A stretch of 64,000 nucleotides of DNA, taken from NCBI GenBank assembly GCA_964023285.1, contig CAXIEN010000093.1:2567739-2631738 (forward strand). Reading direction: 5' to 3'. Under the pieces are notes generated by a model that saw nothing but the letters and a program-made list of their open reading frames with translations, had not been told where the DNA came from and searched no databases. The stretch comes from Larinioides sclopetarius (lineage: Eukaryota). A program made the position numbers and the translations under genes. Positions 2,179-52,035 of this stretch are shown piece by piece; positions within the stretch are counted from its first letter, which is position 1; each line of letters begins with the position of its first letter.

Positions 2179-2193
2179 GTGTGTGTGTGTGTG
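2179..2193. repeat. (GT)n microsatellite, about 7-8 units
   Basis: Direct read of ggtgtgtgtgtgtgtg. Confidence 0.9.
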
Positions 2194-5100
2194 ATTGCTT
2201 CCCCCACATTTATATATAAATAAGATCAATGTCTGCAGAGACCGCTGCACTACAGCAACGAAATTTGACATGAAGGTGGCCCAGGACAGGAGCCGAGACA
2301 TTTCGAAAAGACTGTTTTAATTAACAAAGTAGATTTTTTGCTACTTAGTGTTTTATCTATTATTTCGCCCTTTCTAATGAAATACCGTACTAAAATTTTT
2401 AAAAGTCTGGAATCTGAACAAATACAGAATTTTTTTCATACCACCTGAAATGTAATTTTACGTCGTCAAATTTTTATTTGTCAGATTGTAAAGGTTAGTA
2501 AACTATGTTTAAACATAGCAAATCATTGGATATAAACATCCACGAACTTTGTGATGAAATATCAGTGGCCTGTTTTCTATTGGAAAAATTTGCCAACTTA
2601 AGAAATTTTGAAATTGATAGCAAAAATGAATTTTATACCAAACTTGAGCATTGTTTTAGGAATTTTTTATTTACTCTTCCGAGGTAATAAATCCGAGGTG
2701 TTGTATACGAGGAACGTAAAATTTCCAAAATAAAAATAATCTTCAACTATTGGCGAAAAACATTTCAACCAAGATCGTTAGGCCTCTCCATGTTAGGATT
2801 TGAATATGAACTGAGGTAAAGTTTAGATGTTTCTGAATTAACCGTAGACTTCTATGAACTAAAAGTTTGCAAAAAAAACAAGAAAAATGCTTGCTAAAAA
2901 TTGTATAAAACAGACTATAAACCTTTTTAAAAAAGAATACATACATTGTAGTTCCATAAGGGCGTAATTTTTTACTTTCGCATGGAACGCTTCGAGTTGG
3001 AGACAAATTTGGAGAGTTTGACGACAAATCGATGATTCCCAAATATGCGTCATTTTCGTGATATCTCAATCAGGAAAGAAGATACCGGAATTTGCTAGGT
3101 ATTTCCATGTGATGTCACGGTCTTTCAGGCAGAGTATATAAGAAGCGTATCTGGACCACGATGAGAGAGTGTTGATCGACTGGAACGAGTTGACTGATCG
3201 AGATCGCCTTAGGCGTTGTATCCGTTGTGCGATCTAGGAAGCTGTTAGGCGCCAAACGGTAGTAAAGCAGCGTGTGGGAACATTGATTGATTTTGGAGTT
3301 TCGCTGCAGAAAGAACTAGAAAGCCAGTGAACGGAGCGCGTTTGAAAGTGCTGTTATTGTCATTATTAGTGATTTGCTGACTAGTTGTGTCGCTAAATCT
3401 ACTGTATTGCAATTATCTGGGAATTGTTGTCTTTTGGGGTTGCTAATCTGTACAAGATATATTTTTCCTGTTACTTGTGCTGAGTATTTTCAGGCATATT
3501 TGTAAATAAACTTTCATTCTCCATTATCCTGCGTATTGGACGGTTTACACCATACAGCCACAGAGCGATTTTTGTAACATTATTAAGTGATATTTGAAAG
3601 ATAAGGGTTGGAATTTGCGTTTCCATAATACTAAATGAAGATTAACATATTTTCGATGGTATAGACAGATATAATCCCTTTATAACAGTGAGTATTATTT
3701 TATATTAAAATGCTGAAAAACTTAAGAAAAAATTATGTGTTCATAAACATAAAGCAATTTATAATTTTTTATAATTAGTTCATATTTAAAAAAAATGGAG
3801 ATAGAAACACAAAGTATTATTTATGCTATTTGAGGCAGCAACAGCGGAATCATAATTGTATAAAATGGAGTAGAATAAAGGACAAGACTAGAAATATACA
3901 AAGAAAATACTCAATAAATAATTATATAATGTAAGGAAGTACAAAAAAGCTTGTAAATGGCAAAAAACTCATTTCTAGAGTTTTTACTATTCGAAAAGTA
4001 ATTAATTCTGGTGGTAGCACAAGCCAGACAGAATCTATTCATACCAAGAATAATATAATCTATTACGGTTTGGGTATTTCCCTCCGTATAAAGAATACAC
4101 TCTCTTAGCTTAGAGGATCAGGAAGTAATAAACGCCTCCCTAGTATGCCCTATACATGTTCAATGACATTCAAGTTAGGTGATCGTGATGGTAATTCGAC
4201 ACGAAGCAGTGTATTAATCATTGACTGACAATAAGAGACCTCTATATTTGAACATTATCATCTATGAAAGCAGATGCCTTCAAGAAATGGGTAAACATAC
4301 TGTAGATTGATGTCATTTTTTGAGCCCGCTGCACTCACAGTAACACGAAGTGATTAGTGCGGTTGGTTAAAACAATATTGGTACATACCATCATCTCTGC
4401 ATATGTTTAATTTCTAATTTGATATCGAGTTACAGAGTTTTTCCAAATCAGTAATTGGTGATAATCTGTCTATAGGTTAAACCAAGAGTTAGCTACAAAG
4501 ATCGCGATTTCCCATTGTTGTTGCATTTATTTGAGAAATGATCCTGAACTAAATATAAGCGGCTTGACGGTTTACTTACTTGCAGCTGATCTGTAAACAG
4601 TTTGCTGTTTTACAGCTCTTCTTGGTGATGTTAAAAAATCTGTAGCAGGCCAATGAGCAATAATTGATCTGTGGTTTCTTGCTTACAGGCACATAAAATC
4701 GCCAACTTGAGAAGTGCTTCTTGAGCTTTTTCTTATTGCTCTTCGTAACAACTTTTCCTTCATTTTGATATCAGTTTTACAAGCTGTAAATAACAGAATG
4801 ACTGGTAATATTATTTATGCGTCCTACGGTTGAAGACCTTATTCAAGAACTCCTATTATCTTTTATCGGCTGGTGTCATACAAATGATATCATCTACTAA
4901 TTTTTCACAATTCAGTACTTACTCTGACATCTGAAACATTGATACAGAATAAATTATACGGAATACGCCAGCAACAAGCCGTTTCTGATATAAGGCACCA
5001 TTCTTTTTAAAAACATGTTAGTCTTCAAAAAGTCTCAGTCTTTTTGTCAAAAGTTTCATTATTTACTTGCGTCCCTATACACGAACGTACCAATGTTTGC

Positions 5101-7699
5101 TTCCCATATATATATATGCATATTTTGTAGTTGCATTTATTTCTTTCTCCAAAATCTCGTTTGTCACTTATCTTTTGGTACAAGGGTATATACAGTGTAT
5201 CCACTAAAATCCTGCCCACTTATAAACTTCGGTTATGACTACAGCTCACAAGTCACGTAATGGGTGTCTAAATGCTATATGTGAATCAGTGTATTCATAG
5301 ACATGCTTCTGTGTTTTATTATTCCTATCACGAAACCTCTACATTATACAAACAAAAAGTCATTATCAGATATGTGGAGCATGTTTTTGACAAAATGTAA
5401 CATTAAGAAATTCTTATAAAAATATTCTTAAGTAAACTGGAATTTCAGTCGCATTTATAAAAAATAATTTTAGTTTTTAATGAATGTTTTAAAAATTTTC
5501 TTTCTTATGATATTTATTGTACTTTAGCCGCTTTGTTTTAGCGCCTCATAATTATGATAAAACTATTTTCTACTTTATAGTAAACTAATGAAAGTTCGTT
5601 TTAGAAAAACTTTTTAGTTTAATTAATTTCTACTTTATAGACTTTAATATATTTATTTTATAAACATGTGTGTATGTGCGTGTGTCTTGTTATTATTCTT
5701 TCTTCAAATTCACGACTAGATGTCATCTCTAATATGGAATCCACATTTAATTAAAATTAATCGATTAACCGATGATTGAATAATGAAAATATTAAAATAT
5801 AATGTTTTTTTCATCGGGAATACACAATTGTAACATATTTAAGAACTCTAGGGCGTCAGGAAGGAATTGCAAAATCGACTATAAAATTCCGTTTTTTGAA
5901 AAAAGTTGTATAATAGCATGTAGAATGTAAATAACACAATTTCTGCTTATGGCTAACTCAGAGCTATATCTTTTAGAAAAAATACTAAAATGTCACGGAT
6001 TTCCTGTTATCTAGAGATAGCAAGCTTTCACAGTCTCTCTTCATATATTGTCATCTCGCTAATATGTGCTTTCAATCATGGATGAAAAGTTGAATGGTGT
6101 TTTCTGTAGGACTTGATAAAAGGTCGCTGACACTTAAACCGACAGCTGTCAATAGACAGGACACATAGCCGACATGACTGGTTTACAAACACAACGTGTA
6201 AATGGCATGCACTTCAGGGTACGTGTCATTTAGGGAACATGTATGCTTATGTAAATTTCTTAATTTTATTAGTTTGTTTTTTAATTTGAATTAAATAATT
6301 TAGCAGTTTTAATGATTAAATGATCTTTTACTGATAATTATAATATCATTTGCGTAATTATAGTATAACTAACTTTAGTATCCAGTTTTGATTAGAATAG
6401 ATTTAAATTCGCACTTAATTAAATATAATTAATTTTATTCTTCCTGCAATTAAATAATCATTTATAAATAAAAAATACCATATTCCTATCCAGTAATTAA
6501 TAAAATATCTTTAAAAGCAACGATTCTTTAAAATAGAAATCAACGCAGTTGACCTAAAAAAGGTCCATAGAATGACATGTGCGAATTTCAAGTCATTACT
6601 GTTCACCACTTCAAAGAAGTTTTTGTGAATCATGTAAAAATGTTTTTTTCATGTTTTATATTATAATTCATAATATGTAATAATAATTGAAACTCATTAT
6701 TGCCTCCATGGAACGCGAAATTAGACACAAATGGAGGAAATCGAGTGCGATCCGACTATGGCCTACAGTAATCTTGCTTGCCTACCTGTTAGTCGCAGTT
6801 ATTTTCATTTTTATATAACTGCAATGTAACATGGGGATATAAAATTTATTCTATGAAGTATTAATCTTTTTTGATAAGTTTTTCTTTATACAGGAATAGC
6901 GCTAGAATTTACCCGAGGAGGATTCCGATTTCCCGGACAAGAGGGTACGCTATTCTCGACGGGGGAATGACCTGTTATATGAAGAGGGACGAGTGCAATG
7001 AAATTGGCCTCAATTTTGCGCTTTATTATTACTCTGTATAGAAATTTTCAGCGACGGTATTCAAATTTTTTCCCCCGATAGAGGGGCATAGCATCCCCGA
7101 CGAGGGGTCTTCTCCCTCCTCTGGAGCCCACTCCTACCTTTATAACTTCCATAATTAATCCTAATGAGAAAGTAAATGAGTATTCATTAAGAAGAATCAA
7201 ATTGCAATGCTTATCGAACAATTGTAATGCTTATAAATAACGCCTTATAGATGTTGATTGTATGAGTATGTATTAGAAATTGCAAAAGACGTGAATAATG
7301 TGAAAACAGTGGAAATTTGCCTAACGAGCACTTCGCATTTTGAGTAATTTGCATAATGAGGAAGAAAAAATGAAAGGAAATTATTTGATGAACGAGTGAC
7401 ATTTTACATAACAAGTAATAAGAAGAGAGAAAGTTCCAAATTTTGGGGCTTTTTCTGTCATATTCAAGGAGCATGTTTTGCTTTAATTCTTATCAAACAT
7501 GATATATAGAGATGTTTTCTAATTTCTTTATATCAAACATGCTATTTAGTGAAGGGCTCTCATCAAATATGGTGTCTAGAGACTAAACATAATCTAAAAG
7601 AATTTTAGAAATACCACTTCCACATCATTTCCTGGTTCATAATGATCGAAAATGCATGGTAAGGAGTTACCAAGAGAACCCTTACTTCTGCTTGGAAGA

Positions 7700-9440: not shown

Positions 9441-9695
9441 AGGCCGCAGTGGCCTAGTGGTAAGGTCTCGACCTCGTGACAGGAGGCTTGAATTCCACTG
9501 AAGATCCGCCGTGTATGGGGCCTGATGCAAGCTAAATCATACGCAGTGGTCAAACGTATCCGCTCTGGTGTGGCACGGAAGCTTATAGCTGAGGAGCCGG
9601 CATCATCATCTGACCATGGTTCAAACTTACGAAATCCATTCCTAAATAGCCCTCGTTTTGCTTCAAAACGGAACGTTAATATAACCTAACCAAAC
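9441..9695 (+). mobile_element. tRNA-derived SINE, copy A (full length)
   Basis: tRNA-like head (ggcctagtggtaagg: A-box-like). Shared blocks 'ccactgaagatccgccgtgtatgg', 'catctgaccatggttcaaacttacga', 'cctaaatagccctc..gcttcaaaacggaacgttaat'. Tail 'ataacctaaccaaac'. Five further copies in the window. Confidence 0.85.
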
Positions 9696-10290: not shown

Positions 10291-12442
10291 TGCAAGACAC
10301 AGTATACAATTTCTCAATGGAGGACGATACATTGAACAAATTTTAAGCTGTTACTTGACATATCTGTTTATACTATATAACGCATCACTCCACCCACTGC
10401 AGAGACAGTTTTTCGTGTAGACTGTTCACTCTGCAATGATTTATTCCAGATATCGTCTCCGAAGTTTCTCAATTTGTTGCGATTCTTTCTATGTTCCTCC
10501 GCTGGTTATTTATTGATTTTCAAAATTTTAAATGTCTTCTGAATTTTTATCTATACACGAGGGCTTCAGTAAGTATTAATTCATAATTTATGTTTTCAAA
10601 TGCATTAGCGGATAATTCCAATAGTAAAAATTCAAAAATTTATATCGGTAAAATCTTATTTTTCAATCGCGATTTTCTGCAACAGTCTAAATAAAAGCTA
10701 GTTGTTAACTAAAGTTTTGCTGAAATGAAATGAAATTAATATACTCATAACAAAATAAAATGTAATCAAGGCCGAATAAACGAAGCAAAAATAAAAATAT
10801 AATAAATGAAGCACAAACGAAATAAAAAAATAGATAGACAGGAGATTAAATATCCCATGAATATATTCAAACTTTTTTGTACTTTTAGCGTGGTAAAACT
10901 TTATATATTAATACAGAAGATGTTTTCTAAATAACTTTTAAAAACCAAAATAAAAAGAAAATCATATATCAATACAAAGGTAAGTTGTAAAAGAAAATAT
11001 ATGAATTGCGAAAATATTGCATGGAAAAGTATTGCATTTTTTCTGTGTTAAATCATTTGTCACATGGTTGCTGGAAATGAGTATTATAAACAGCAGTAAG
11101 TGGTAATAAAAAAAATAGTTTTTTGTTGTTGTTATTATCACAAGTTCGAGTCATATAACACATTTACTTATTTTGTTATCTGGATCCATAGTTAGATTTA
11201 TGAACTCTATATAAAAAAGCATTTTTAACAGAAACAGTTTTGAATTTTGCAATTATCCAAATCTTCATTACATCAAAGATTTACCAACTGATATTTGATC
11301 TGTCGAACCGAAATTCATTCCTTTTTTTTCATTTGAACCTTTCTTTATTCGAGACTTCAACATTTCTTTACGAATCATTCCCTCTTCCCTTTTACAAAAT
11401 TTGTAATGGGAATCTCAGAACTCAGAGGCTGTTAGCTTTCGAGTTTTGTAAGAAAGCCTTATGATTTGTGTTGATATGAAATGAAATAAAAAAATGTGAT
11501 TTTAAATCATTTATTTTTGTTAAAATGTACTATTAGTATATTTCAGAGTGTTATTTTTCATTTAAACCATTTTCTTTCCATTATTGTCCTACAGATGGCG
11601 CTACAAACCCTTACACGCAATTTAACAGAATACATATTCAGCGAAAATTCCCTTTCTTTGATTTGTCTTCCTTCGGCTAGCAAAATTATTATTCTTCCTC
11701 GAATATTTTCTAGATCCTGTCAGGATAAATTTCGATATTTTTTACATAATTATTTACATAAACCTGAATAACCGCAACCGAATAATTACGCTTAATGCAT
11801 AATGCTGTCTTGGGAGGAAAAAAAAGCACGCAAGGAGTTTTATAGGTCCAGTATTTAGCTTTTTGTATATCACATGAAAAAGCAATTCGGATTCCTCAAA
11901 TAAATATATTATTTGAGGAATATTTTTTTTTGAAGGAGGCTTCCTCCACTGTTCTGGGACTTCGGAAGAAACAGTGCTTCTCTAGTCTATATAAAGAGAG
12001 TTTATATTCTCTCTTATCTTCTCTATAGATAAATAGGCACGATGTAAAATACCCCTCTATAATTTTCTCCATAACTAAACAACATGATTAGTAGAAAAGT
12101 GAAGGAGTAATAACACCATAACTCATCAATAGCACAGTCAAGGCTGAATTTTTCTTTTATTTGTTTTTCTTTTTTTATACTTCTACTTTTTCTTTTTTTT
12201 CTTTTAATGATAACAAAATACATAACCGCATTACCGTTATTATAAAAATTGTGATTAAAGAAAAAATTCCTAATTCCTATTCGGTAAAAGAAAATTATTG
12301 TGCAAATGATTGTTATGTCACCCAGAATTCAATTTCTGTATAAAAAAGCCGGGTATAAAGAACCTCCAGTCCACAAAATGTTCCCAAAAGAACCTTTTTC
12401 CTTACTTCTGCTCAGTTCGCTCTCTTTCTCTGTTTATATATG

Positions 12443-17205: not shown

Positions 17206-17834
17206 GAATTCCCAATGTTTCTAAAGAACCTAAAATCTCTGGTTTCAGACTTGATTTGGTCTCCTTTTTTGAAAAAAGGTGGCTGAGATACAGCACTTTT
17301 ACCTACATTCACGTCACCTCAGCTAATTTTTAAAATACATTATTTAGTAGATTTTGATTTGGTAACAATAGTGCTTAACAAATTGGTAGCTAATGCTTGG
17401 TAACAATATTTAAGATTTTGTTGGCATTGTAATCACCGTATTTTCAATTCATCAAAACAAGAAAATATGAGAAAAATTATTTGTTTAAGTATCTTTTAAG
17501 TTTTGAAAAAGATGTTAGCGTTGTATAAAAATGGTTTATATTTTCTTCATATGCAAAATCTTAACTACCCTTTCCTTACGATTGATACTATAAGTTATCT
17601 AGTATTTTAAATTTATGCTTGGGGATTTACAACGAAGTAGATATCTGCTATTCTTTAGAGTTTTAGGTTAGTTTAGTTTAGTTTTGAAGTCCAATTTTTA
17701 AATTATTTTCGGATGGGCTAATTTGGAACTTTGATAAGATGATGAGTACGACACTTAAGCCGACTATTCCTTCTTTCTAAGGCACTTGACCTTTGGCAGA
17801 TTTAAAAAGCACCCGGCCCAAAGATACAGACTCG

Positions 17835-18445
17835 AAATCGAGATTCCTCCTAGAAAATGTCTTAGACCTTTCTACTTTCTTCTACATGTAGATGAGACGA
17901 AAGTATCGGAATCGTGAAAATTTTCCGACTTCTGTTTTTTGATGGATTTACACGTTTGGGGAGGCCCTAAACAAGATTTAACTATTTTTAGAAAATGTCT
18001 GTCTATGTGTCTGTATGGGACACAAATTTTGTCGTGTACTGACTGCTATTCTACGTTTTTCATAGAAATCGAAATTTTGTAATTTTTGTGATTAGCATAT
18101 CTCGGTTTCTATGTTTCGAAATTGCATAAAATTTTATACATAAAATGCATTCTATATGAAGTTACTTTGATTTAATTTACATGCATGTATCTCAACAGGG
18201 GCTTTGCTATGCATTTTCAAAATTTCCGTTATAAGCATTTCTCTGTTTCTATGATAAAGAATGGCTTCAACGTTGCCTAAAATATACGAAAGAGTTTGAT
18301 GCAGTTTATTAATATTTTTATGTTTTGGATAAAAATAAGCGTTGTATCTATAGACTCTGCTGCATATCAATAATATAAATATATAGAAGAAAGTTTTGTG
18401 ATGGCAACATCTTACTAATTTGCGTGTAGAAACGAAGATATATAC
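17835..18445 (-). mobile_element. Dispersed repeat family 'R' (non-autonomous; no coding capacity seen), minus-orientation copy lacking the internal duplicated segment
   Basis: The reverse complement matches 32100-32470 and 32790-32990 block by block (for example 'gatgttgccatcacaaaactttcttctatat', 'atactaatcacaaaaattacaaaatttc', 'tacatgtagaagaaagtagaaaggtctaaga'). A further partial minus-strand fragment of the same family lies at about 14540-14690, on the other flank of the 392-bp array. Confidence 0.8.
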
Positions 18446-18529
18446 CTTTGTTGTTAAAAAAGATTTTTTTCTTAAAGATAGAGATATTATATAGATTTGA
18501 TATGTCAACGTCCAATTTTGAAGTAACAA

Positions 18530-18745
18530 AAGGGCCCTTTTGGGACTAACTTCGTGATTTTCCACCACGGTCAGATGACGAGGAGGACACCTGAACTAGT
18601 AACCCTCTCTCCAAACTTCGCACAACGGCTCGACCCAAGAAGTCAGATTTAAAGTGTACATACCCACATATACAGAGGTTCTTAAGTGGAATCGGGCTCT
18701 GAACCTGCAACCCTCTGTACCTGGGCCACCACGGTCTCTATACTG
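18530..18745 (-). mobile_element. tRNA-derived SINE, copy B (minus orientation, head partly truncated)
   Basis: The reverse complement contains 'cctcgtcatctgaccgtggtgg' and 'ggttcagagcccgattccacttaagaacctctgtatatgtgggtatgtacactttaaatctgac', matching copy D. Confidence 0.75.
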
Positions 18746-20100: not shown

Positions 20101-20390
20101 GTATTAACACCTCATTTTGAACAATTCCCGTTGGAACGAAGCTCTTGAATTTGAACCACGGTCAGATGAAAAGGACGACAACCGGTCAGGTGCCACCTCT
20201 CCACACTTCTTCATCAAGCCTGTGTGTGTGTGGGGGGGGGGGGAGGGCCCTAGGCTTCCTGCGCATGGTTTATCGGACCCACATGCTAGGCAAGGATTAA
20301 GAAGAATTGGGTTTCGAACTTAGAACCCTCTGGCCCCGACGTCGAGACCCTGCTTCAAAGCTACTTCTCTCCGCAGAGGCAGTCACAGAA
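20101..20390 (-). mobile_element. tRNA-derived SINE, copy C (minus orientation), interrupted by a (GT)n(G)n microsatellite at 20222-20246
   Basis: The reverse complement gives the head '..ggtctcgacgtcggggccagagggttctaagttcgaaaccc' (B-box-like GGTTCGAAACC), then 'catctgaccgtggttcaaatt', then the tail '..gttaatac'. Confidence 0.8.
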
Positions 20391-25680: not shown

Positions 25681-28600
25681 ATTTCTGTTCTTTCAATTGA
25701 TTAATGCTGCTTTGCGCTTTTTGTTTTGAAAGAAATTTAATGTAAAGTTTTTTTTAAAGTTTTTAGTTTCTTGAGAATCGAATAATTAATATTTTTAAAA
25801 CTTAATTATCTGTTAATCGATTCATTTCATTAAATCTTGTTTCCATTCGAGACGAAACCTGGTAGAAGAATAAATACTAATTGAAATGATAAAATCTCTT
25901 TTTCAAGCACAGTTATAAAAGAATGTTTTTAAAAATATCTTTTATTACGTATGCGAAAGTATAAAAATTGAATGTGTACCATTTTATACATATTTAAGAA
26001 TCTGTATAAACTTATTTAGAAATCTATAAATATGAAGAAAACTTGAGAAATATTTTTCACACGCCCACGAAATTTAATCGGTTACTCTCCTAATTTGTCC
26101 ATCAACTTTCCTCTTCATATTAATTATGACAAAAATAAAAATTTTATGAACGCTAGTTATTTAAATTCCTGAATGTTAATTCATGGCGCCTAAGATTTGA
26201 ATATGATGCATGAAACAAAGATTGCTTAAAGAGATAGTTAAAAATTCCCATAAAGATGTCGTTCAAGTTGAGATGTTTAGAATACTCATCGCACGAGAGT
26301 CGAATGTTTAGTCAAGGTCATAAAATATTCAGATAATTTCTGTTTTACGTACTAATTTGGTGATTCGAAATTCTCTATCGTGGCATTGATGTTAATCTTG
26401 AAAGTCAAAAATGTCTGCATTTTCAATTGGTTATTGATTACTCCACATTTTGTTCCTTATTCATATAGGGGAGGGGAAAGTGAGAAGATGATCACATTTT
26501 AAGGCGTCAAGTGTACGCTGCATATATTCAAGCACCAGCCGAATTCAATGTCAGTGTGCTTATTCTAAAATCATTTTTCCGACAACAAAAGTTCGCAAAT
26601 GTCTGATGTTGTTTAACTTCCCAGAACAGTTCGAATACAAGGAAAAAACCCTTTCATGTTTGAAGAAAAAGATGGCATGATGCACCATGTACCAAATCTA
26701 AATGCTCAATGCTCTATAAGTAATTTAATTAAAACAGAAACTCATAAAACAACAGCTTTATTTTTTGATAATTCAAAATATTTGTTTGTGATAATCTGTA
26801 TTGTATTTTAGAAAATTATTGGCGTATCTTTTTTCGATGAGTAATTTCTAATAAAAAAATACACTTGAATGTGCATATATGAAGCAGATAAATTGCCGTC
26901 AGGGCGACATGAAAGATAAACCATAACCAAATAATCCTGAACAAGAAAAAGTGAAGGAAAACAAACCAAGATAACGAAGGCCACTGTCGGGCGAGAGGGA
27001 GAAAAAAAACAGGAGGATCTCTCTTAGTTGTGGTCATGAGCCAAACCTGGGTTACAGCGAAACCAGCTCGAGCCACCACCAAACTCAATAGTAGGAAGTT
27101 ATGGCTTTCCCCTTCCGATACTTCGTTTAGCTGCTGTGCAGTGTCAAGACTGTTTTCTGAGCAGCCCCAACCTATGTATCTCCTACTTATTGAATCATTT
27201 TTTTTACTTTCTTCATTAATATTATTTTTATTATTTTTGTTGTTCATCAAATTCTTCAATGTGAAAAAACAAACAAGTATCATCAAAAACCTAGAAAACA
27301 AAATTTTAAAATAGTTGCAGGAAGAATAGTAGTGGCGACACTAGCTATAAAGCCAAAACTGTGAACTTACATTTTTTATGAGTTTTTATGGAGAACCAAG
27401 CTGCTTGAAAAAAGAAAATTACTTCTATTTAATTGGGAAACTGTCTGCTCATTTTTGAGCTGACGAAACATCAATAATTATAGTCTTCTCTGCAAAAGAT
27501 CAATATTTTGCGCTAATCAAGAAAATTCTGACGAAATGATAGAACCCTTTAAGTTCATCAGCAATTTCTTAAGCTGGCAAGCTATCTATTATCATTAGCA
27601 ATTACTAAGATACTTTTGGACAATAGCAGAAATTCTCAACGTTAAGAGCACAGATTTCTTGGGGGGGTGATAATACTCAGTGGAAAGTGTGGGTATTGGG
27701 GAGGAGCTGACATATCAAAAAATAAGATGCTCATTTACACTGATATAATACACTTATAAATAGGATTGTATCAGTACTTCAAAATGTATTCAATAATTAC
27801 CGTATAAATACGAAAATTAAAACAAGCTTAATATATCCTATCCATTTCTTTTAGTGATCAACTAAATCATCTTAGGAACTAGAGGAGCGAAAGTCAACAT
27901 CTAATACCAAAAATAATATAAAATTTTGTTAAATTATAAGAAGGATCTTGGTTAAATAAAGATTTTTACAATATGTACAACTTTAAATGCACAAGGTAGA
28001 TAAACGACGAGAGTTCGAATATGGGGTGATAATTGAGACAGCCTCTGCAATTATCGATATCAAAGTCTCTTAAGGATGAAATAAAGTTCATAAGAACGAG
28101 AGCTACTCTCTCAAGAATAATGATTTTAAAAAACGTATAGCTTCTTAATAATGCCATTCAGAATAGGCTCCACCACTGGTCGTCACACGATAAGACTTGG
28201 GTTCTAAATAGGCCCGAAGACCTATCGTTCGCAGCAAATGATCCGACAATCGAAATTGATCAAGACTGACCCACAAAAAACCGAGACTTCTGTCTCTCAC
28301 GCTTTCTAATGGCTAGTATTCTTCTATTTAGCTCTGCGCTGCCTCTTAAATATTTTGACTTCTCCTGCAATCGTTCCACCCCAACTCGTGACAATTGGCC
28401 ACGAGTCTGAAGATGTTATGACATCTCTCCGGCGTGGAGAAGCAATGCTAACCTTCAACTTGATGGATGGCTGATAACTCGGACCCTTACTCCAATCTGA
28501 GAGATCAACCATCTGCCTTCTTTGATCAGGAACGCAAACAAAGATATTGCGTGGACTGTCTCTCTCTCTCTCGGTCCAGGAGGCAGACTAGCAAGTGGAG

Positions 28601-28972: not shown

Positions 28973-31900
28973 AATTTTGTCAATGTAGGTGTTGAAAATA
29001 TATTTACTTATTCTTGGTAATTTTTAAGGTTTGTAATTAAGGTCGTAGTGTAGATTTAACGTCAAAATAAACATAATTATTGCATACATTGTTGTTGTAT
29101 GAAGGGTAGGCGATGAAAATTTTGGTTGAAAGTTGGGTCGCAAATACTAAAAGATTGAGAAACACTGATTTATGGCTATTTCTGTTTAATTAACAATATC
29201 CTTTAATTAACTATATCGTTTAATCAACTATAAAATCCACTATTTACGGCTTCAAGTATACGTATCGAAAAATGTTCTTTCAACGAATTAAAAGAGAGAG
29301 TTAACTAACAACTCACATCAGTTTAAAATAATAATGGAAAAAATAGTCATTAAACAGCGCCACCAAGAAATAAATAAAAAAGTCAGTGATTAAATTTCAA
29401 TCATTCAAACTGATAAAATAAACTTATTTGATGACAAGTGCCTCAACTTCAATTTCGAGTACAGCTAAAAAGATTAAAGGAAAAAAGTAGAGCATATCGT
29501 ATGAGCGATGTTATAAATTTTTATTTCCGAAATTATTATAGATAACAAAAAAATGGGTATTCATTATCCCTTGACTTCATTAATTAAGTTCTATTTACTC
29601 TGTTACTTGATTTGCTATTTATCTTTCGAGTAACAAGCAAATCTTTTTTACTCAAGACTTGGAAAGCGTCAACACTGTCTGAATAGCGTTCCTCAATCTG
29701 AAAGAGTTTTTGATGTTTCACTTGGAGAGAGGGGTCACGCGATAATCACATTTCCTTACATTCAGAATGTGCTTTTTCAATTTATTCTGGGTTTCTCTTG
29801 GATGTTTAGTCGCGTAGAAATGGTAATTACTGAAATAAAAACAGCCTTACAAATCTTTCAAGTGTTTAAATAAGAACTGACGTTAATCTCATTGTCGCTG
29901 TATTGTGCCAAAGTCGTAATGGCCTTATCTCATTCAGATAAGGTTTATCTATTATGAAATGGCTCCATAGCAGTTTCAATTTATTTTAGCACTATTCATT
30001 GAAAAGTGCCATAAATGGCTTTATTTAATATTAAGACACGAGTTTAGTCGATAATTTTTAGATGTTTTTATTTAATTTATTGTGTTTGATGTTTGTAAAG
30101 ATGGAAGTTTGTACTCGATTTTTTTTCACTCATTTTTCTTAGTGTGTCTGAGCTTTTATTATTTTGATATTTTCAGATCTTAATTATTAGTTAATCGATT
30201 AATTTAATTAAATTCATTACCAGGCGCCATCTGGTGATGATTTTTTTGTTTGCATAATGTATTTAATGAATTATTAACTAAACACTAAAGAGCTGAAAAT
30301 AATTAAAGTTAAAAATATGTTTTTAGTATAAAATAGTTTGTTTTTAAAAACTGTTTTTATCCAACTGATTTTCCACGCTTCTCATAGTAAAATAGATTAA
30401 ATGATTTTATTTCAGCTATTGTTTAGATTCTGCTCGTAATCTCTAGTATAGAACATATTTTTTATTGTAGAAGGAATTAAAAAACGGTGCATCGGCTTAG
30501 ATTTCTAAAGAATTCCCATTAAGTTCGTTGCTTTTCTAAATAAACTGATAGGAACAAAAAATGTTAAAATGAAAAAAAAAAATAAAGTTGATCATTACCA
30601 TTTTTTATGAGGTAGAGTGAACTTTATAAACAAATTGTTTCACAATGAAGAATACTGGAGTGTGAATACTTGAGTTGGGGGGGAAAATTCTTCATAAATT
30701 CAATTCAACAGGATTATTTTTTAAAAATACCTCTGCCATGAAGAATAAAAAATATGTTTAGATCTATACAGCGTGACCGCAAATGAAAATCTCGTTAGTT
30801 GATACAAGTCATGTGGCTGACTGAATGGACCACCATGAATGACAATGCTGGTATTAAGAACACTACAAAAAGACGACGTTACATTCGTTCATGCGCCAAA
30901 CCCTCAAAAGGAGGTACATCCCGTCATTAAAAATAGGATCGTTATCCAGCATCTGCATCATTAATGTGCTCCTTCCAAACCGTAAACTGGCTTCTTTACA
31001 CGGACAATTCTCAATCTCATATTTAAGCCCTCCCTTATATCATAAAGCCTTTGCCCTTTTTGAGTTTATTATGCAGTAATACCAATGATTTACAATTTCC
31101 GTTGAAATAATAAAATAGGCTGTAATATATAATAATTATTGCCGAACAATAATCTTTAAAATTCTGCTCATCAAGCTTTTTGGCAAGCTGAGGAAATGTA
31201 AACTCTTTTTGCTTTATTGAAGTAAAGCTTTTATTTGGTTTTAAGTTGTACTAACATAAATTACAGAATTCCAATTTAGAAGTTAGTTTGTGCAACCACC
31301 GTTTATCGCTTATAAGAAACACGGATAACAGTTTGTTTTCGTGTTTTGACTAATGAAATGCGGTATGATTATAATGAAAATTAAAAAGAGCGAGCTTCGG
31401 CAATTTAAAAAAAATCGAATGTGATATCATTAGCTTTGACCAACACCAGCAGATGAAACATATTAGACAAAAGAATCGTGCTTTGAGAAATCGCTGCTCC
31501 TAAAATATTTGGAAATAGAGATTTTTTATTGTTAACCTCCAAACAGTTATTAAACTATTTGATGGAGGATATTTTTTAAAGTTTTATTGTAAAACTTCCT
31601 TAGATTCGCCTAGGGATTTTTTTGTTTGTGCTTTTGATTCTTTTTCTTAGAAACATCTAGTTAATTATGCTTAAATGTTAAGTTTTGTGTCAATGAGAAT
31701 TTTGGCAAATGAAATAAGAAAATTCAAATGGAATTTTTTTTGCTACAATTTTTATTGAACACTCCAGAATTATCCCAAAAATATAGGAAAAATTTAATTA
31801 TAAAGGGATTTGGTGGAGGAAACCCATATCTAGAGTAGCTGCAATTTGCAAAGTGATATGAGAAAGTTGTCCAATTAAAGTTTTTCTAAGCAAAAAATAT

Positions 31901-32990: not shown

Positions 32991-33571
32991 ATTTTTTATT
33001 GGGATAGTTTTTATTCAGTTTTAATTTTACGCAAAGAAATTATGCAGGCTTATACATTTTTAAGAGTTTGATTTTCATGCAGTTTTTGTTAAGTCTCAAA
33101 AATAACGAAAAGGCGAGACGAAACAAGTAAATCAGATATAACGCAACCAGACGAATACAAACGCTGCTCTCTAATTTCGTTACAAATGAGTCACCTGGAA
33201 GTGGCACATGAATAGAATGCATAATATATGTGCATAGAATTTATAGCAATTCGTTTAGAAAGTATTCACGCACATAGAATTTATAGTAATTCACTTGCAG
33301 AACATTCATAGCAATATCAAACAGTTGCAACATTGTAAGTATTTGTGATATAAACTGTAACGTGGATTTCTGCCTTTTTTTTACCTTCAGAAATTTTATT
33401 TTTATAAATGTCTAATTTTTTTCTTCTGTATTATTGTTGACTCTTGGCTTTATTACAATAAAAAGTTTTTTGGAAGATATATGGATTCATTAAATGTTAT
33501 CATCGACTTGCATATCGCAGGGAATATATAATTGTACAGTCCTCAACAAAATAGATGGGGAAACCTCTGTA

Positions 33572-33967
33572 TCTCGGGTTTTTATTATTAGATCTTCACA
33601 AAACTTGTGTTGATGTTAATAGCTCTAGGGGGCAATTTTTTCAGATAAAAATACTGATTAACCTATTAAATTAACAAATTTAATTAACAGATATCTCGGA
33701 ATTTTCTCATTACCCTTATCATTATTTTTAGCTGAATCGAATTTTCTACAAGAGATTAGCCTTCATAAAAAATTCTATACAGTTTTGATAATAATTTCGA
33801 GAGTTACGGGGTTTTGAAAAATGGCCTTTCCCATACTAAATGAATTTAAAAAAACTTCTGACGATATCTCGAAAAATATTATATAATTCTCAAAACTTTT
33901 TTCACTAACATAAAGAACACTAGTTTTTTAAATTTTTACTTCAAAAAATAAATTCAAAAGTTAAATA
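33572..33967. repeat. Left arm of a large palindrome that flanks the Tc1-like element
   Basis: Segment 33572-33830 is the reverse complement of 35490-35745 (for example 'gaattttctcattacccttatcattatttttagctgaatcgaattttctacaag' against the reverse complement of 35530-35640). The inner portions are more diverged. Confidence 0.75.
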
Positions 33968-35040
33968 TACACTGAAGAGCCAAAAAAACTGGTACACCTG
34001 CCTAATATCGTGTGGGGCCCCCCACGAGCACGCAGAAATGTCGTAACACGACGTGGCATGGATTCGATTAATGGCTGAAGTAGTGCTGGAGGTAATTGAC
34101 AGCATGAATCCTGCAGGGCTGTCCATAAATCAGTAGGAGTAAGAGGGGGTGGAGATCTTTTCTGAACAGCACGTTGCAAGGCATCCCAGATATGTTGAAT
34201 AATGTTCATGTCTGGGGATTTTGTTGGCCAGCGGAAGTGTCTAAATTCAGAAGAGTGCTCCAGGAGCCACTCTGTAGCAATTCTGGACGTGTGGGGTGTC
34301 TCATTGTCCTGCTGAAATTCCCCAAGTCCGTAGGAATGCACAATGGACATGAATGGGTGCAGGTGATCAGACAAGATGCTTACGTACCTGTCACCTGTCA
34401 GAGTCATATCTAGACGAATCAGAGGTCCCATATCACGCCAACTGCACACGCCCCATACCATCACAGAGCCTCCACCAGCTTGAACAGTCCCCTGTTGACA
34501 TGTAGGGTTCATGGATTCATGAGGTTGTCTCCATACCCGTACACATCCATGAGCTTGATTCAGTTGGAACCGAGACTCGTCAGACTAGGCAACGTGTTTC
34601 CAGTCATCAACAGTCCATTGTCGTTGTTGACGGGCCCAGACGAGGCACAAAGCTTTGTGTCGTGCAGTTAACAAGGGTACACGACTGGGCCTTCGGCTCA
34701 GAAAGCCCATATCGATGATGTTTCGTTGAATGGTTTACGTTTACAAGGCGACACTTGTTGATGGCCCAGCATTAAAATCTGCAGCAATTTGCTGAAGGGT
34801 TGCACGCTTAATGAATCTCGTCAGTCGTCGTTGGTCCCGTTCTTGCAGGATCTTTTTCCGGCCGCAGCGATGTCGTAGATTTGATGTTTTACCGGATTCC
34901 CGATATTCACGGCACACTCATGAAATGGTCATACGTGAAAATCCCAATTTCATCGCTACCTCGGAGATGCTATGTCCCATCTCTCGTGCGCCGACTATAA
35001 CACCACGTTCAAACTTGCTTAAATCTTGATAACCTGCCAT
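33961..35040 (-). pseudogene. Tc1-like transposase, near full length but interrupted by a stop after the HTH region, one in-frame TAG and at least one frameshift
   Basis: Minus-strand translation gives the N-terminal HTH 'MAGYQDLSKFERGVIVGAREMGHSISEVAMKLGFSRMTIS*'. The middle reads '..VPLLTARHKALCLVWARQQRQWTVDDWKHVA*SDESRFQL..'. The C-terminal catalytic domain reads 'GGGSVMVWG..FQQDNETPHTS..WPTKSPDMNIIQHIWDAL'. The position of the third catalytic acidic residue reads Q (IIQHIW) rather than the E of PIENLW. Confidence 0.85.
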
Positions 35041-35187
35041 TGTAGCAGCAGTAACCGATCTAACAACTGTACCAGACACTCGTTGTGTTATATAGGCGTT
35101 GCCGACCACAGCGCCCAACTCTGATTGGTTCCATATCACTTTATCTGCATACGCCTGCCTGTTCCAGTTTTTTTTGGCTCTTCAGTG
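33970..35187 (-). mobile_element. Tc1/mariner-superfamily DNA transposon (Tc1-like), about 1.2 kb, with TA target duplications and 25-30-bp TIRs
   Basis: Termini are 'TA|CACTGAAGAGCCAAAAAAACTGG..' at 33968 and '..CCAGTTTTTTTTGGCTCTTCAGTG|TA' at 35187. They resemble the Caenorhabditis Tc1 TIR (CAGTGCTGGCCAAAAAG..). The transposase reading frames lie inside. Confidence 0.9.
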
Positions 35188-35189
35188 TA

Positions 35190-35745
35190 CTTAAAAGTTT
35201 AAAAAGATGACTGTGAAAAAAAAGTGAATTGTAACATAGTAAAATTTTTTACAAAAGAACAAAGATGAGACGTTATAATGGCTATATACAAAAGATCGAA
35301 TGCACATATATATAATAGTTTCCTAATTATTTACAATAAACTGTAAATTTTTCCACCTTTGAATTGCAACACCCACTTTTTGAGAACTGTATATTATATA
35401 TTTATTTAAATTTATTGGTCTATTTTTCGTGTAACACGATTTTTACAAAAAGAAGAACGATAAATATAATATATATTTCCTAAAAAAAAGGATTTTTCAG
35501 TTTTGTTACCTGCCATTTTTCAAAACCCTAAAATTCTCAAAATTATTATCAATCACTATAAAAATTTATGTAGAGGCTAATTTCATAAAGGGCATTTGAT
35601 TCAGCTAAAAATGATTGGTGTAATGAGAAAATTCTTATATAGCTGTTAATTAACTATGTTAGTTAATGCGGTTAATCAGTTTTTTTTATTTGAATAAACC
35701 TGCCCTCTCGAGCCATTAACATGAATACTAGTTTTGTGAAGATCC
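35190..35745. repeat. Right arm of the palindrome that flanks the Tc1-like element
   Basis: Reverse-complement match to 33572-33967 (see the left arm). Confidence 0.75.
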
Positions 35746-36229
35746 GAATACCGGAATTACAGAGTTTTCCAGGTATCTGATCTATTTTATTAAGGACTGT
35801 ACGCTGCTGTGTCCTGAGAAGCCTTGACTTCTTTTTAAAGCCTCTTCGGGGTATATAGGTTTTATAAGCACTAGAACCCGGATAATTTTGAATGCAATTG
35901 GTAGTTTTTTTTACTAGGAAGTCGGGTTATGGGTAGTTGCTGTTGTTGGCAGTTCAAAGTATTGAGCAAAAATCAGCGTGAAATAGGAATGAGGGGTATT
36001 AGGGGGATTTGGTATTTAATTCGAAGTAGGATTTTGTTGCCTAAAAAAGGCGGAACATCAAGTATAAAACATTTGTTGGTGGGAGGATGGGCACAACTCG
36101 CTGTACAGCTAACTCCTTAAGGTCAGTTTAAAATTTCCTAATAACATATCTCACATTTTAAACTAATTTATAACACACAAATCATCTACGGTCAAATATA
36201 GTATTTCAACTTTTTGACAAAATTTGCTA

Positions 36230-45258: not shown

Positions 45259-47229
45259 CACAAAATACCGGATAATATTGTGCGATATCTATACGATGTT
45301 CTTCGGTATTCTGAATACAGCACAATGTCGTGAAGATAACGTAACGACATTGCGCGGCATTTTGTGCTATTAGGGACATCTCACACTTTATCGTTTATCC
45401 GCAATACCATGGGAACATATTGTCACACAGAAGCTATTTTAATATCAACTTAAAGTTTAAAAAATGAGCTTTTCAAGGAACACCAATTTCATTTCACTGC
45501 TATGTCTGTTTGATTTTAATTAACCTTTGAAAATATTTTCGAACACAATTTCCAGTTTACGAAACTGAATAGAGCTACTAAGATAATTGTTCCATTTATA
45601 GTATAGTAGATGGGGAGGGAGGAGGTTTGATGAAGGGAAGGCATTGATGATTTACGGTTACATTCGCATATGGATTCTATTCGATGCTGCCTCTCTTCAT
45701 GTTTAACTTTCGTGGCCATAGTAGGTGTTAATCATTCTATTTATAATTGAAAAGGAATTGAGTTATTTGAAACTCAGTAGTTCAATTTCATTAGCTGTGA
45801 ATCGTCAAATAGAATTACATCGTTGGTATTATAAAATTAAGTCTTTTATTGTACTATCTGGCAAATACCATAAAATATGCAATTTTTATTCATCCTTCTC
45901 AACTGAAGTTGGTGAAATCGCGAAAGGAAGTCTATAATTAATATAAGCCACAAAAATAAAGGCTAATGAAAACGGACGAACCAGCTCGTCACCGAAGGCG
46001 GCTAGTTTCCCAATATTTTTATATACAGTAGTCATCTCTCGTAATGTTCACGGATGTAATGATATAAATCGGTTGATCAAAATAATCCATATCTAAAAAC
46101 ACAAAAAAATTTGCCTGTTCTAGTGATCAACATTTCATTTGTTGAGATCGGTCTTGATGAGATGACTCCTCAGAAGATGAGGACGATGAAAAAGGGCAAG
46201 AAAAGAAGCCATCATAAGCCCAAGAAACTCTACATACTATTCGCATTTAAGAAGATCTGTTCAAAACCATGCTGAGCTTTTGAACAGCATTGTTCAAACG
46301 AATTGAATCCGATATATGCTTGAAAATTGAAGCATGTCGCTTTCGACAACATTTCAGGCCTGATTTCCGCCCAGGTTTGAGGCCCTAAAATTTCCAAAAT
46401 TATTATGATCAAAAGGAGACCCGGTTCATTATTATTCGTATTCGTTTCGAACTCAATTGGACAACCGAAACCAATTTTTATTCACATATTTAATTGCTTT
46501 TAAGAAATATTCTAACAAGTTACTTTCATTATAACAATGATAGTATCAAATGATTTATATTAAATTGTTCTTTTATGTTAGAATTTCAGTAACGTCTTTT
46601 CTTACACGTTCTTTAAGACCATATATGTTCGAAGAAAAATCTCCCACATTCAACCACTGTCAATACATATCATTGCACCTCCCATATTTAATTCTTTATG
46701 GGGTCCCGAAAAAATTCTGTGCTTTAGGCCGCGAGTGATGTCAGGCCTTGATAACATTTTTAAAAAAGCTTAAAGTGAATGATTTTAAAAAAAATTCCCC
46801 ACATCGTAACTATTTTCTTTTTTAAATTAAAACAAATGAATACGTAACGATGTTATGCTGTCTGTTTTTTCTGCTATGATTATGTGTATAATGTAAATGA
46901 TGCACTGAACAAAAATGATTTCTTGCGCTCTAATTGTCACAGTGACTTAGCGAGAGTAAATAGCGCTCATTGCCTTCAATTATGTTTCACCTCTTCATAA
47001 TATTTAGCTTACAAAAGTACTATGCTCTAATGTTTTCTCCCATTGCCCTCCCTGAGTAGCTCATAGATTTCTAAACCCCTGATCTTTGTATTTTATAATT
47101 TTTTTTATAAATTTTAATGTTTTGATGGCATTGTTGGATAAACTTATCATTATGAGTTAGTGATCATCTTGATTTTGTCCCATAGTGATCACTAAAAACG
47201 GAGTCCATTGTTAAATTTTTTTCTATCGT

Positions 47230-47518: not shown

Positions 47519-47786
47519 TTGTGGTGGGTGGCCTAGTGGTAAAGTGGATGGAGGGTTCCAGGTTCTAAACCCTATTTCATCCAAGATCTGCCGTATATGT
47601 GGACCGGGTGTACATTAAATCTAACATTAAGTGTCAAACATCCCGCTGTTGGTCCGACGTGTAATTTTGATGAGGGGTATCAGTACATATGACGTCCTTA
47701 TCATCTGACTATGGTTCAAAATTATGAATATGGTACTAAAATAGCCGTAGTATTATTAAAATAATAGAATGTTAATTTAATTGAAT
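47519..47786 (+). mobile_element. tRNA-derived SINE, copy D
   Basis: Head 'gtggtgggtggcctagtggtaaag..ggttccaggttctaaaccc'. Body 'agatctgccgtatatgtggacc..catctgactatggttcaaaattatga..ctaaaatagcc'. Tail 'gttaatttaattgaa'. Confidence 0.8.
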
Positions 47787-49856: not shown

Positions 49857-50056
49857 CCAGGCTCAAAGCCCATTTCCACTGAATGTCCGCTGTGCTTGTG
49901 AGCATGAGTCAAATGTTGTCCTGGTGATGTGGCGTCCAAGCTTAGAGTAGGAACCACCATTCTCGTCATCTGACCGCGGTTCACAATTACGATGTCCGTC
50001 CCCAAATAGTCCCCGATTGCTTCAAAATCGGACGTTAATGTAACTAAACTAAACTG
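49857..50056 (+). mobile_element. tRNA-derived SINE, copy E (5'-truncated, lacking the tRNA head)
   Basis: 'ccaggctcaaagcccatttccactgaatgtccgctgtg..catctgaccgcggttcacaattacgatgtccgtccccaaatagtccccgattgcttcaaaatcggacgttaat' followed by the tail 'gtaactaaactaaac'. Confidence 0.8.
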
Positions 50057-50984: not shown

Positions 50985-51252
50985 TGCGGTGGCCTACACA
51001 GCCTTGTGATTGAAGGGTCGCAGGCGCGAAACCAGATTCCACTGAAGATCCGCCGTGCATGGGACCTATTACGTGCTAAATCATATGTAATAGCCAAACG
51101 TCCTCCCAGTCGTATGGCTTGGAAGCTTGGAGAGGGGAGTGCCGCGGCTCTGGTGTCATCCTCGCCATCTGACCGCGGTTGAAAGTTACGATGTCCGATC
51201 CTAAATAGCCCTCCTGTCGCTTCAAAACGGGACGTTAATTATTATTATTAAT
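50985..51252 (+). mobile_element. tRNA-derived SINE, copy F. Its tail reads 'acgttaat' followed by (TTA)n, then abuts the LINE fragment
   Basis: 'tgcggtggcctacacagcc..ccactgaagatccgccgtgcatggg..gctaaatcatatg..catctgaccgcggttgaaagttacgatgtccgatcctaaatagccctcctgtcgcttcaaaacgggacgttaat|tattattattaat'. Confidence 0.85.
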
Positions 51253-52035
51253 CCACTGAAAGGGAACCGACCAGACAAGGTTTACGGTTATACAAAACCC
51301 CTCTCAGCGTAAATGTGGAAAACAAAGGAAGAGGAAAAAAAAAAAATAAGGCAAAGAAAATCTGAATTGCAAGTGGAAGCTATAAAAGTCTTTTTTTAGT
51401 CCATGATGATGTCTTGTTGCCGTTCATGAAGGATTTTCATGATACACATAATTCGTACAAGGGATCTTTTGTCATTTACAATTTTTTCACACCATGTTGA
51501 TAGATTTTCAGCACTGGGCTTCGTGAAGTGAAAGTGTTTGGTCATTGGACATTCTGTTGCGTAGTGATTTGGGTCTCCTTTAGCGCCGCAGACACACTGA
51601 TCGTGAGAGCATAAACCGAACCTGTGAAGATAGGCCACGAACGGCCCATGCCCTGTGATGAATTGGTTGATTTTTGAGTTGAAAGAGGCTCGATTTACGT
51701 TGACTTGAGGAACGAAGAGGAAGGTCCGTCGCCCCGTTTCCGAGAGGTTCCACCTATCTTGCCAGATTTCAAGGGAACATTTTTTGAGATTCTTTTTAAG
51801 GTAAGATTTAGGGAGATCAGTATTGATGATGAGAGAACTGTCCACAGTACCCTGCCTGGCTAATTGGTCAGCAATTTCATTCCCTAGTACCCCCGAATGT
51901 CCTTTTACCCAGGAGATGGTAACTTCGGTTGTCAAGGTGTTCGAGATATTCAGGATTTCCCGAGCAATAGGTGAGTTTGGCTGGAGGGCAGCAAGTGCTT
52001 TCAGGGACGATTGACTATCCGTGTGAATAGTGCAT
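51253..52035 (-). mobile_element. 5'-truncated non-LTR retrotransposon (LINE) fragment: RNase H domain, C-terminal Cys/His motif and a roughly 140-bp 3'UTR, ending at or near a (TAA)n tract
   Basis: Minus-strand translation of 51396-52030 gives '..ICTIHTDSQSSLKALAALQPNSPIAREILNISNTLTTEVTISWVKGHSGVLGNEIADQLARQGTV..' (an RNase H signature, TD..S..A / VKGH.G..GNE.AD.LA) followed by 'HDQCVCGAKGDPNHYATECP'. Among arthropod non-LTR elements, RNase H is found in the I, R1 and LOA clades. The frame closes upstream at about 52040, which indicates 5' truncation. The (TAA)4 at 51241-51252, read on the minus strand, may belong to this element or to the SINE F tail. Confidence 0.8.

Follow-up and report, generated by a model that had tools for sequence, protein, structure and literature searches.

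Two generations of cut-and-paste transposons are very probably recorded at this locus: a Tc1-like copy of the DD36E/Incomer (IC) family, nested in an older, non-coding element with long terminal inverted repeats (TIRs). The locus lies in the 64-kb stretch of DNA that was analysed as a whole, referred to below as the window. The whole structure is an ordinary nested transposon insertion, and its unusual-looking features are either a signature of the family, as for the spacing of the catalytic residues, or private decay, as for a glutamine at the third catalytic position. The palindrome around the transposon most likely represents the terminal repeats of the older element, which chanced to be the landing site, and nothing suggests that palindrome and transposon work together.

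The boundaries of the inner element were obtained by reading the sequence and by a repeat scan, which place it at 33970-35187 (1218 bp), with TA followed by CACTGAAGAGCC at both ends. The TA target-site duplications, read from the sequence and from the alignment of copies, are located at 33968-33969 on the left and 35188-35189 on the right, in agreement with the preliminary description of a Tc1-like element with TA-flanked TIRs. An inverted-repeat scan identified the TIR at the transposase 3′ end, CACTGAAGAGCCAAAAAAACTGGTACA, on the plus strand at 33970-33996, and its reverse complement forms the TIR at the transposase 5′ end, on the minus strand at 35160-35187. The pair is about 27 bp long, and the two ends are distinguished by one indel in an A-run and one mismatch.

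Relatives of this element were found by a protein search, which returned intact proteins of 346 aa on contigs of about 1.2 kb, as well as many annotated fragments in the orb-weavers Trichonephila clavipes and Araneus ventricosus. Nine DNA loci were compared with the window: three from T. clavipes (L001, L006 and L011), three from A. ventricosus (L005, L009 and L010), two Logan sequencing-run contigs (L002 and L003) and one JGI metagenome locus (L004). Nucleotide similarity to the window was 79-91%. Where the end of a copy was preserved, the similarity ended at window positions 33961-33968 and 35189-35192, which correspond to the short TIRs and the TA, and the multiple alignment had TA at the start and end of every copy with preserved ends. 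L002 is a contig of 1226 bp that contains nothing but TA, element and TA. The TIR at 33970-33996 matched the TIRs of L002, L003 and L006 at 96-100%; seven aligned copies from other sources started with TA followed by CACTGAAGAGCC or, in L004, by AACTGAAGTGCC.

The long arms that flank the inner element in the window had no match in any of these nine IC loci. Whether other copies carry the arms was the check named in the preliminary description for deciding between a nested insertion and a Tc1 relative with unusually long inverted repeats, and the outcome (0 of 9) indicates a nested insertion. The same evidence refutes the long-repeat alternative. In its most explicit form, this alternative takes the entire 2.27-kb unit at 33537-35799 as one Tc1-like transposon with long inverted repeats, whose inner repeats are internal transposase-binding sites. 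Some Tc1-like elements, of the Sleeping Beauty, Minos and Paris type, do have inverted repeats of 200-250 bp with inner and outer binding sites, and the outer ends of the present unit start with CAGT next to a TA, both of which speak for a single element. Nevertheless, we consider it highly improbable, not only in view of the copies just described but also because the inner element has a TA duplication of its own, its termini bear no relation in sequence to the outer ones, and the GC content is 26% in the arms versus 49% in the inner element. In addition, published IC elements are about 1.2 kb in length with TIRs of 22-32 bp (PMC6875036). A nested insertion into a pre-existing element with long TIRs, as the preliminary description had also envisaged, agrees with the inner element's own TA duplications and short TIRs and with the nine copies without arms.

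The extent of the arms was determined by gapped local alignment, which placed 33534-33825 opposite 35512-35802 read in reverse complement. This alignment contains 233 matches, 40 mismatches and 37 gap positions, and blastn gave the pair an E value of 1e-50. The match was 85% of aligned bases, or 75% when gaps were counted. The score of this 292-nt inverted repeat was 245, and that of shuffled sequences was 22.8±3.7 with a maximum of 39, which confirms the initial description of the two flanks as mutual reverse complements. However, the repeat extends beyond the limits then recognized, by 38 nt on the left and by 57 nt on the right, and ends sharply at TA and CAGTCC…. The left long TIR thus occupies 33537-33825 on the plus strand, with the terminus CAGTCCTCAACAAAATAGAT, and aligns to the reverse complement of 35512-35799. 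The right long TIR occupies 35512-35799 on the minus strand according to the alignment and the repeat scan, and its reverse-complement terminus is CAGTCCTTAATAAAATAGAT. A putative target-site TA is found at 33535-33536, where the inverted-repeat alignment ends, and the sequence and the alignment place the TA of the outer right end at 35800-35801. The outer TA is present on both sides, although, being palindromic, it is inseparable from a 2-nt extension of the repeat.

Between the arms, the middle part of the outer element amounts to 464 bp, consisting of 142 bp on the left (33826-33967; AT-rich and without a long ORF) and 322 bp on the right (35190-35511; AT-rich and non-coding). The insertion is therefore off centre, being closer to the left arm (142 bp) than to the right one (322 bp), and not exactly at the centre of the palindrome as originally proposed. 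For the inverted-repeat signal within this middle part (142 versus 322 nt), the score was 28 compared with 25±3.8 for shuffles, and 63 of 300 shuffles reached it. A full foldback structure with the repeat running to the centre was rejected on these grounds, since the inner 142 and 322 nt aligned no better than shuffles. When the insertion is removed, the outer unit is 431 + 2 + 610 = 1043 bp long. Its GC content is 26%, that of the inner element is 49%, and that of the flanks is 31%. The outer element has no coding capacity, its longest stop-to-stop frame being 54 aa of AT-rich low-complexity sequence.

The outer structure is most likely a non-autonomous DNA transposon with long TIRs, of the Tc1/mariner-pogo type, of which one copy was seen. 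We base this on the terminal repeats of about 290 bp, the unique middle part, the CAGT termini and the TA on both sides. The alternative is that the palindrome is no transposon, being instead a local inverted duplication or a hairpin-prone AT-rich region that received the IC insertion by chance or by site preference, given that Tc1-like integration favours bendable, palindromic and AT-rich TA sites. The single copy of the arms found in the searches and the AT-rich composition that the arms share with the surroundings (26% versus 31% GC) are in its favour. We regard it as unlikely, because both sides of the repeat end abruptly at the same nucleotide with the canonical terminus of TA and CAGT, as (G)TA followed by CAGTCCTCAAC… on the left and …GGACTG followed by TA(C) on the right, and the flanks beyond these points are unrelated to each other. 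Furthermore, non-autonomous DNA transposons typically show this layout, a unit of about 1 kb in which terminal repeats enclose a unique middle, and the lack of further copies is uninformative with regard to this alternative, the host genome being absent from the collections searched.

These searches were as follows. In the 64-kb window, blastn with a word size of 9 and a scan with the terminal 22-mer allowing 3 mismatches gave chance-level matches only for a second copy of the arms, and sensitive local alignment around a 24-nt match at 46383-46406 likewise gave chance-level similarity and no arm copy. In the JGI metagenome contigs, two 22-nt matches without extension were obtained, one of them within a GTPase coding sequence (…VTVLNKIDLP…). 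No copies of the arms were found in the prokaryotic genome contigs (searched with two patterns), in the viral contigs, or in some 100 kb of DNA surrounding IC copies in T. clavipes and A. ventricosus. As the metagenome, prokaryotic and viral collections exclude the host genome, absence from them says little. The possibility that the outer element is a deletion derivative of an IC of the spider cluster was also considered and rejected: CAGTCC is shared, and beyond it a blastn comparison with the Parasteatoda, Latrodectus and Nephila references yielded chance similarity. As for the rest of the window, it is AT-rich (about 26-41% GC in 2-kb bins), and a tRNA scan and an Rfam scan of it gave zero matches. 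A repeat of about 200-280 bp and other short non-IC repeats of the window recur in the A. ventricosus and T. clavipes loci, which points to an araneoid spider of the orb-weaver type as the most likely host.

We now turn to the family of the inner element. According to Sang et al. (2019, Mob DNA 10:45; PMC6875036), IC elements measure about 1.2 kb, encode a 346-aa transposase and have TIRs of 22-32 bp with a duplicated TA, and their reported hosts are fish, frogs, bats, four insect species and nine arachnid species. Their Table S1 lists TMIC01Rxebr, an IC of 1223 bp from the grasshopper Xenocatantops brachycerus whose TIR starts with TACACTGAAGAGCCAAAGAAACTGG. Compared with the first approximately 400 nt of this reference, the window element was 89.7% identical over 387 nt, a stretch that takes in the TIR and the 5′ untranslated region, and the TIR at 33970-33996 matched the published one. 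The lineage to which the window copy corresponds was represented in the 2019 survey by only one copy, the one from the grasshopper (PMC6875036). The window element has a length of 1218 bp, 346 corrected codons, a TIR of about 27 bp and TA on both sides, in line with the family description. Direct sequence comparison with a published member therefore assigns the inner element to the DD36E/Incomer family, as a dead member. Its near-identity to that member predicts that a tree would place it within the IC clade, apart from DD34E/Tc1.

The transposase pseudogene was delineated at 34002-35040 on the minus strand by three-frame translation, Pfam and alignment to relatives. Its ATG is located at 35040-35038 and the ancestral stop codon, TAG, at 34004-34002, and it comprises 346 codons once the indels are corrected. 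The Pfam domain DDE_3 was detected above the cutoff (29.5 versus 28.6 bits), HTH_Tnp_Tc3_2 and HTH_Tnp_Tc3_1 fell slightly under their cutoffs in this decayed copy, and PF01498 and PF13358 are present in the intact relatives. The window copy thus has the paired HTH DNA-binding domain and the DDE_3 catalytic domain expected of the Tc1/mariner superfamily. Its amino-acid identity to the intact 346-aa relatives is 74-78%.

Comparison with the intact relatives revealed more damage to the reading frame than the two stops and a frameshift counted in the preliminary description. There are four in-frame stops and a +1 frameshift, the latter in a G/C run at about 34015-34024, just upstream of the C-terminal GGPTRY*. 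A 9-bp stretch has been lost, and a 6-bp tandem duplication, GTTTACGTTTAC, is present at about 34735-34746. In addition, 6.5% of aligned positions separate the window copy from a consensus of the seven other copies in the alignment. With seven disabling or length-changing lesions and this divergence from a cross-species consensus, the earlier view of a lightly decayed and therefore young element is overstated.

The spacing of the catalytic residues was counted in the translation. The second catalytic D lies in FQQDN and is followed by 36 intervening residues and then by the Q of SPDMNIIQHIW, and all aligned relatives share this D-36-(E) spacing with the window. In the usual notation, Tc1 has 34 intervening residues. 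The 36 residues counted here therefore correspond to DD36E and not to DD37, and the 37 residues first suggested should be revised by one. Since the published DD36E/Incomer family is characterized by precisely this arrangement (PMC6875036), the odd spacing is explained by membership of that family.

The motif PDMNIIQHIW was correctly recognized at the outset, and the codon for its Q is CAA. The copy consequently lacks an intact D, D, E triad, the third residue being Q; this is a property of the decayed copy and no argument against IC descent. To place this residue in context, E occupies the catalytic column in 17 of 17 aligned relatives, and the closest of these have the entire motif SPDMNIIEHIWDALQRAV. 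The motif was visible in 52 of 120 retrieved proteins, with E in 48 of the 52, Q in two and K in two. At the codon level, GAG is found in all three intact DNA copies, and the spider copies have GAA in two cases and AAA and GCA in one decayed copy each. The window codon CAA is a single G-to-C step from GAA, and differing replacements among decayed copies at this codon are expected under neutral decay. These comparisons firmly indicate E as the ancestral residue at the catalytic position, and give no support to Q as a feature of the whole family. Because other copies have E, a result that the preliminary description itself had named as one that would make Q private, the Q is best read as a private decay mutation of the dead window copy.

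It might be supposed instead that the E-to-Q change marks a functional but catalytically dead variant of the transposase, for example a domesticated DNA-binding protein or a regulator with a dominant-negative effect, seeing that Q falls precisely on the catalytic position and that a T. clavipes protein fragment (P0006) likewise has Q. This seems to us barely conceivable for an ORF interrupted by four in-frame stops and a frameshift and further altered by two indels, in an element that has kept its TIRs and TA duplications as a plain insertion does. Moreover, P0006 has Q in a different background (IIQYIW versus IIQHIW) and the sibling copies have E, K or A, which fits independent neutral hits. 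Private decay of this copy is therefore the reading that we retain for the Q.

From these results, the following history may be proposed, in which the order of the insertions is inferred from the nesting. The first arrival would have been the AT-rich (26% GC) non-coding element of about 1043 bp, with TIRs of about 290 bp and CAGT termini, integrating at a TA. Later, an autonomous DD36E/Incomer element of 1.2 kb would have integrated at a TA within the unique middle of the outer element, duplicating that TA. The IC copy would then have decayed neutrally, acquiring four stops, a frameshift and two in-frame indels, and a single G-to-C change would have turned the catalytic glutamate codon GAA into the glutamine codon CAA. 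Between the two arms of the outer element, 14.7% of the aligned bases differ, or about 7% per arm if they were initially identical, which is consistent with the order given by the nesting. On the same assumption of initial identity, this value of about 7% per arm is similar to, or older than, the divergence of the inner copy.

Decayed copies of the IC lineage catalogued from the grasshopper are present in T. clavipes, in A. ventricosus and in the window, with 80-90% nucleotide identity to the insect copy. The lineage thus also occurs in orb-weaver spiders. Such identity between spider and insect copies has horizontal transfer as its simplest explanation. We tentatively raise the possibility that the IC lineage was transferred horizontally between spiders and insects, possibly between predator and prey, and that the outer element may in addition belong to an undescribed family of spider elements with long TIRs; this combined proposal is somewhat more doubtful than likely. 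The chief use of the present analysis is for repeat annotation, where it provides exact boundaries for the nested pair.

Among known systems, the inner element is most readily compared with the IC reference TMIC01Rxebr, with which it shares the length of about 1.2 kb, the single ORF of about 346 aa, the 36-residue spacing, the TA duplication and TIRs of about 25-28 bp that start with CACTGAAGAGCCAAA. The window copy differs in being dead, as shown by its stops, frameshift, indels and E-to-Q change. The spider ICs listed in PMC6875036 (Latrodectus, Parasteatoda, Stegodyphus and Nephila clavipes) have a different TIR, CACAGTCCAGTCACATTAATG…, indicating that the window copy belongs to the lineage recorded from the grasshopper, outside the spider cluster of that paper. 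With Tc1 of Caenorhabditis elegans and other DD34E elements, the inner element has in common the superfamily, the paired HTH, the DDE_3 domain, the TA target and a terminus of the CAGT/CACT type. In contrast, Tc1 has a spacing of 34 rather than 36 residues and a length of 1.6 kb rather than 1.2 kb, and its motif is SPDLNPIENLW, whereas the relatives of the inner element have SPDMNIIEHIW. The outer element resembles the non-autonomous or MITE-like Tc1/mariner-pogo elements with long TIRs, and foldback-like elements, in being about 1 kb long, non-coding and AT-rich, and in its TIRs of about 290 bp, CAGT termini and TA flanks. It differs from foldback elements in its unique middle part of 464 bp, and so is not a full foldback.

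A repeat of about 200-280 bp was observed at six sites in the window (9443-9691, 18501-18717, 20133-20367, 47550-47727, 49962-50049 and 51014-51241), some of them partial with matches of 64-90 nt. In Araneus ventricosus, two sites of locus L009, at 11765-12012 and 17587-17862, matched it as well, with 67-87% identity, and no tRNA-like head was found in the window repeat by ARAGORN. This repeat probably represents a family of the SINE or MITE type that orb-weaver spiders have in common. Another repeat of about 290 bp, at window 3289-3582, matched a second A. ventricosus locus (L005) at 4452-4737 and 5890-6147. Because these two copies are in opposite orientation and approximately 1.1 kb apart, they suggest that a second long-TIR element family is present in these spider genomes.

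Two colinear blocks of the window, 27708-27833 and 29039-29174, matched a Trichonephila clavipes locus (L011, 9010-9672) with 72-76% identity. In that locus the matching blocks adjoin or overlap a predicted gene of 116 aa. Conservation of an exon or UTR could account for them, as could one more repeat shared by the two genomes. On the minus strand of the window, an ORF of 179 aa at 51396-51935 contains a motif resembling RNase H (VKGHSGVLGNEIADQLARQG) as well as a tail rich in Cys and His. This ORF probably represents the 3′ portion of the pol gene of a non-LTR retrotransposon, and the local rise of GC at 50-52 kb is consistent with this reading.

The A. ventricosus locus L005 also contains, at 983-3652, an IC (DD36E/Incomer) copy in two halves with about 890 bp of unrelated DNA between them, and for this reason it seems common in these spider genomes for IC copies to have nested insertions within or around them. 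Among the relatives of the window transposase, P0045 is an IC-type transposase of 308 aa, encoded on a 1.5-kb contig, with 48% identity to the query. Its NCBI annotation reads 'transposase [Salmonella enterica serovar Corvallis]', but it is almost certainly eukaryotic contamination within a bacterial assembly.

The sequence comparison of IC copies gives a hint that insects and spiders exchanged this transposon horizontally, or else that the catalogue is incomplete, since the spider ICs in the 2019 survey belong to another IC lineage than the window copy (PMC6875036 Table S1), and the window copy (33970-35187) showed 89.7% identity to the single grasshopper reference (TMIC01Rxebr, Xenocatantops brachycerus) versus 82-85% to the fetched spider copies. 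Over the same first 400 nt, the grasshopper IC is nearer to the window copy than any of the fetched spider ICs.
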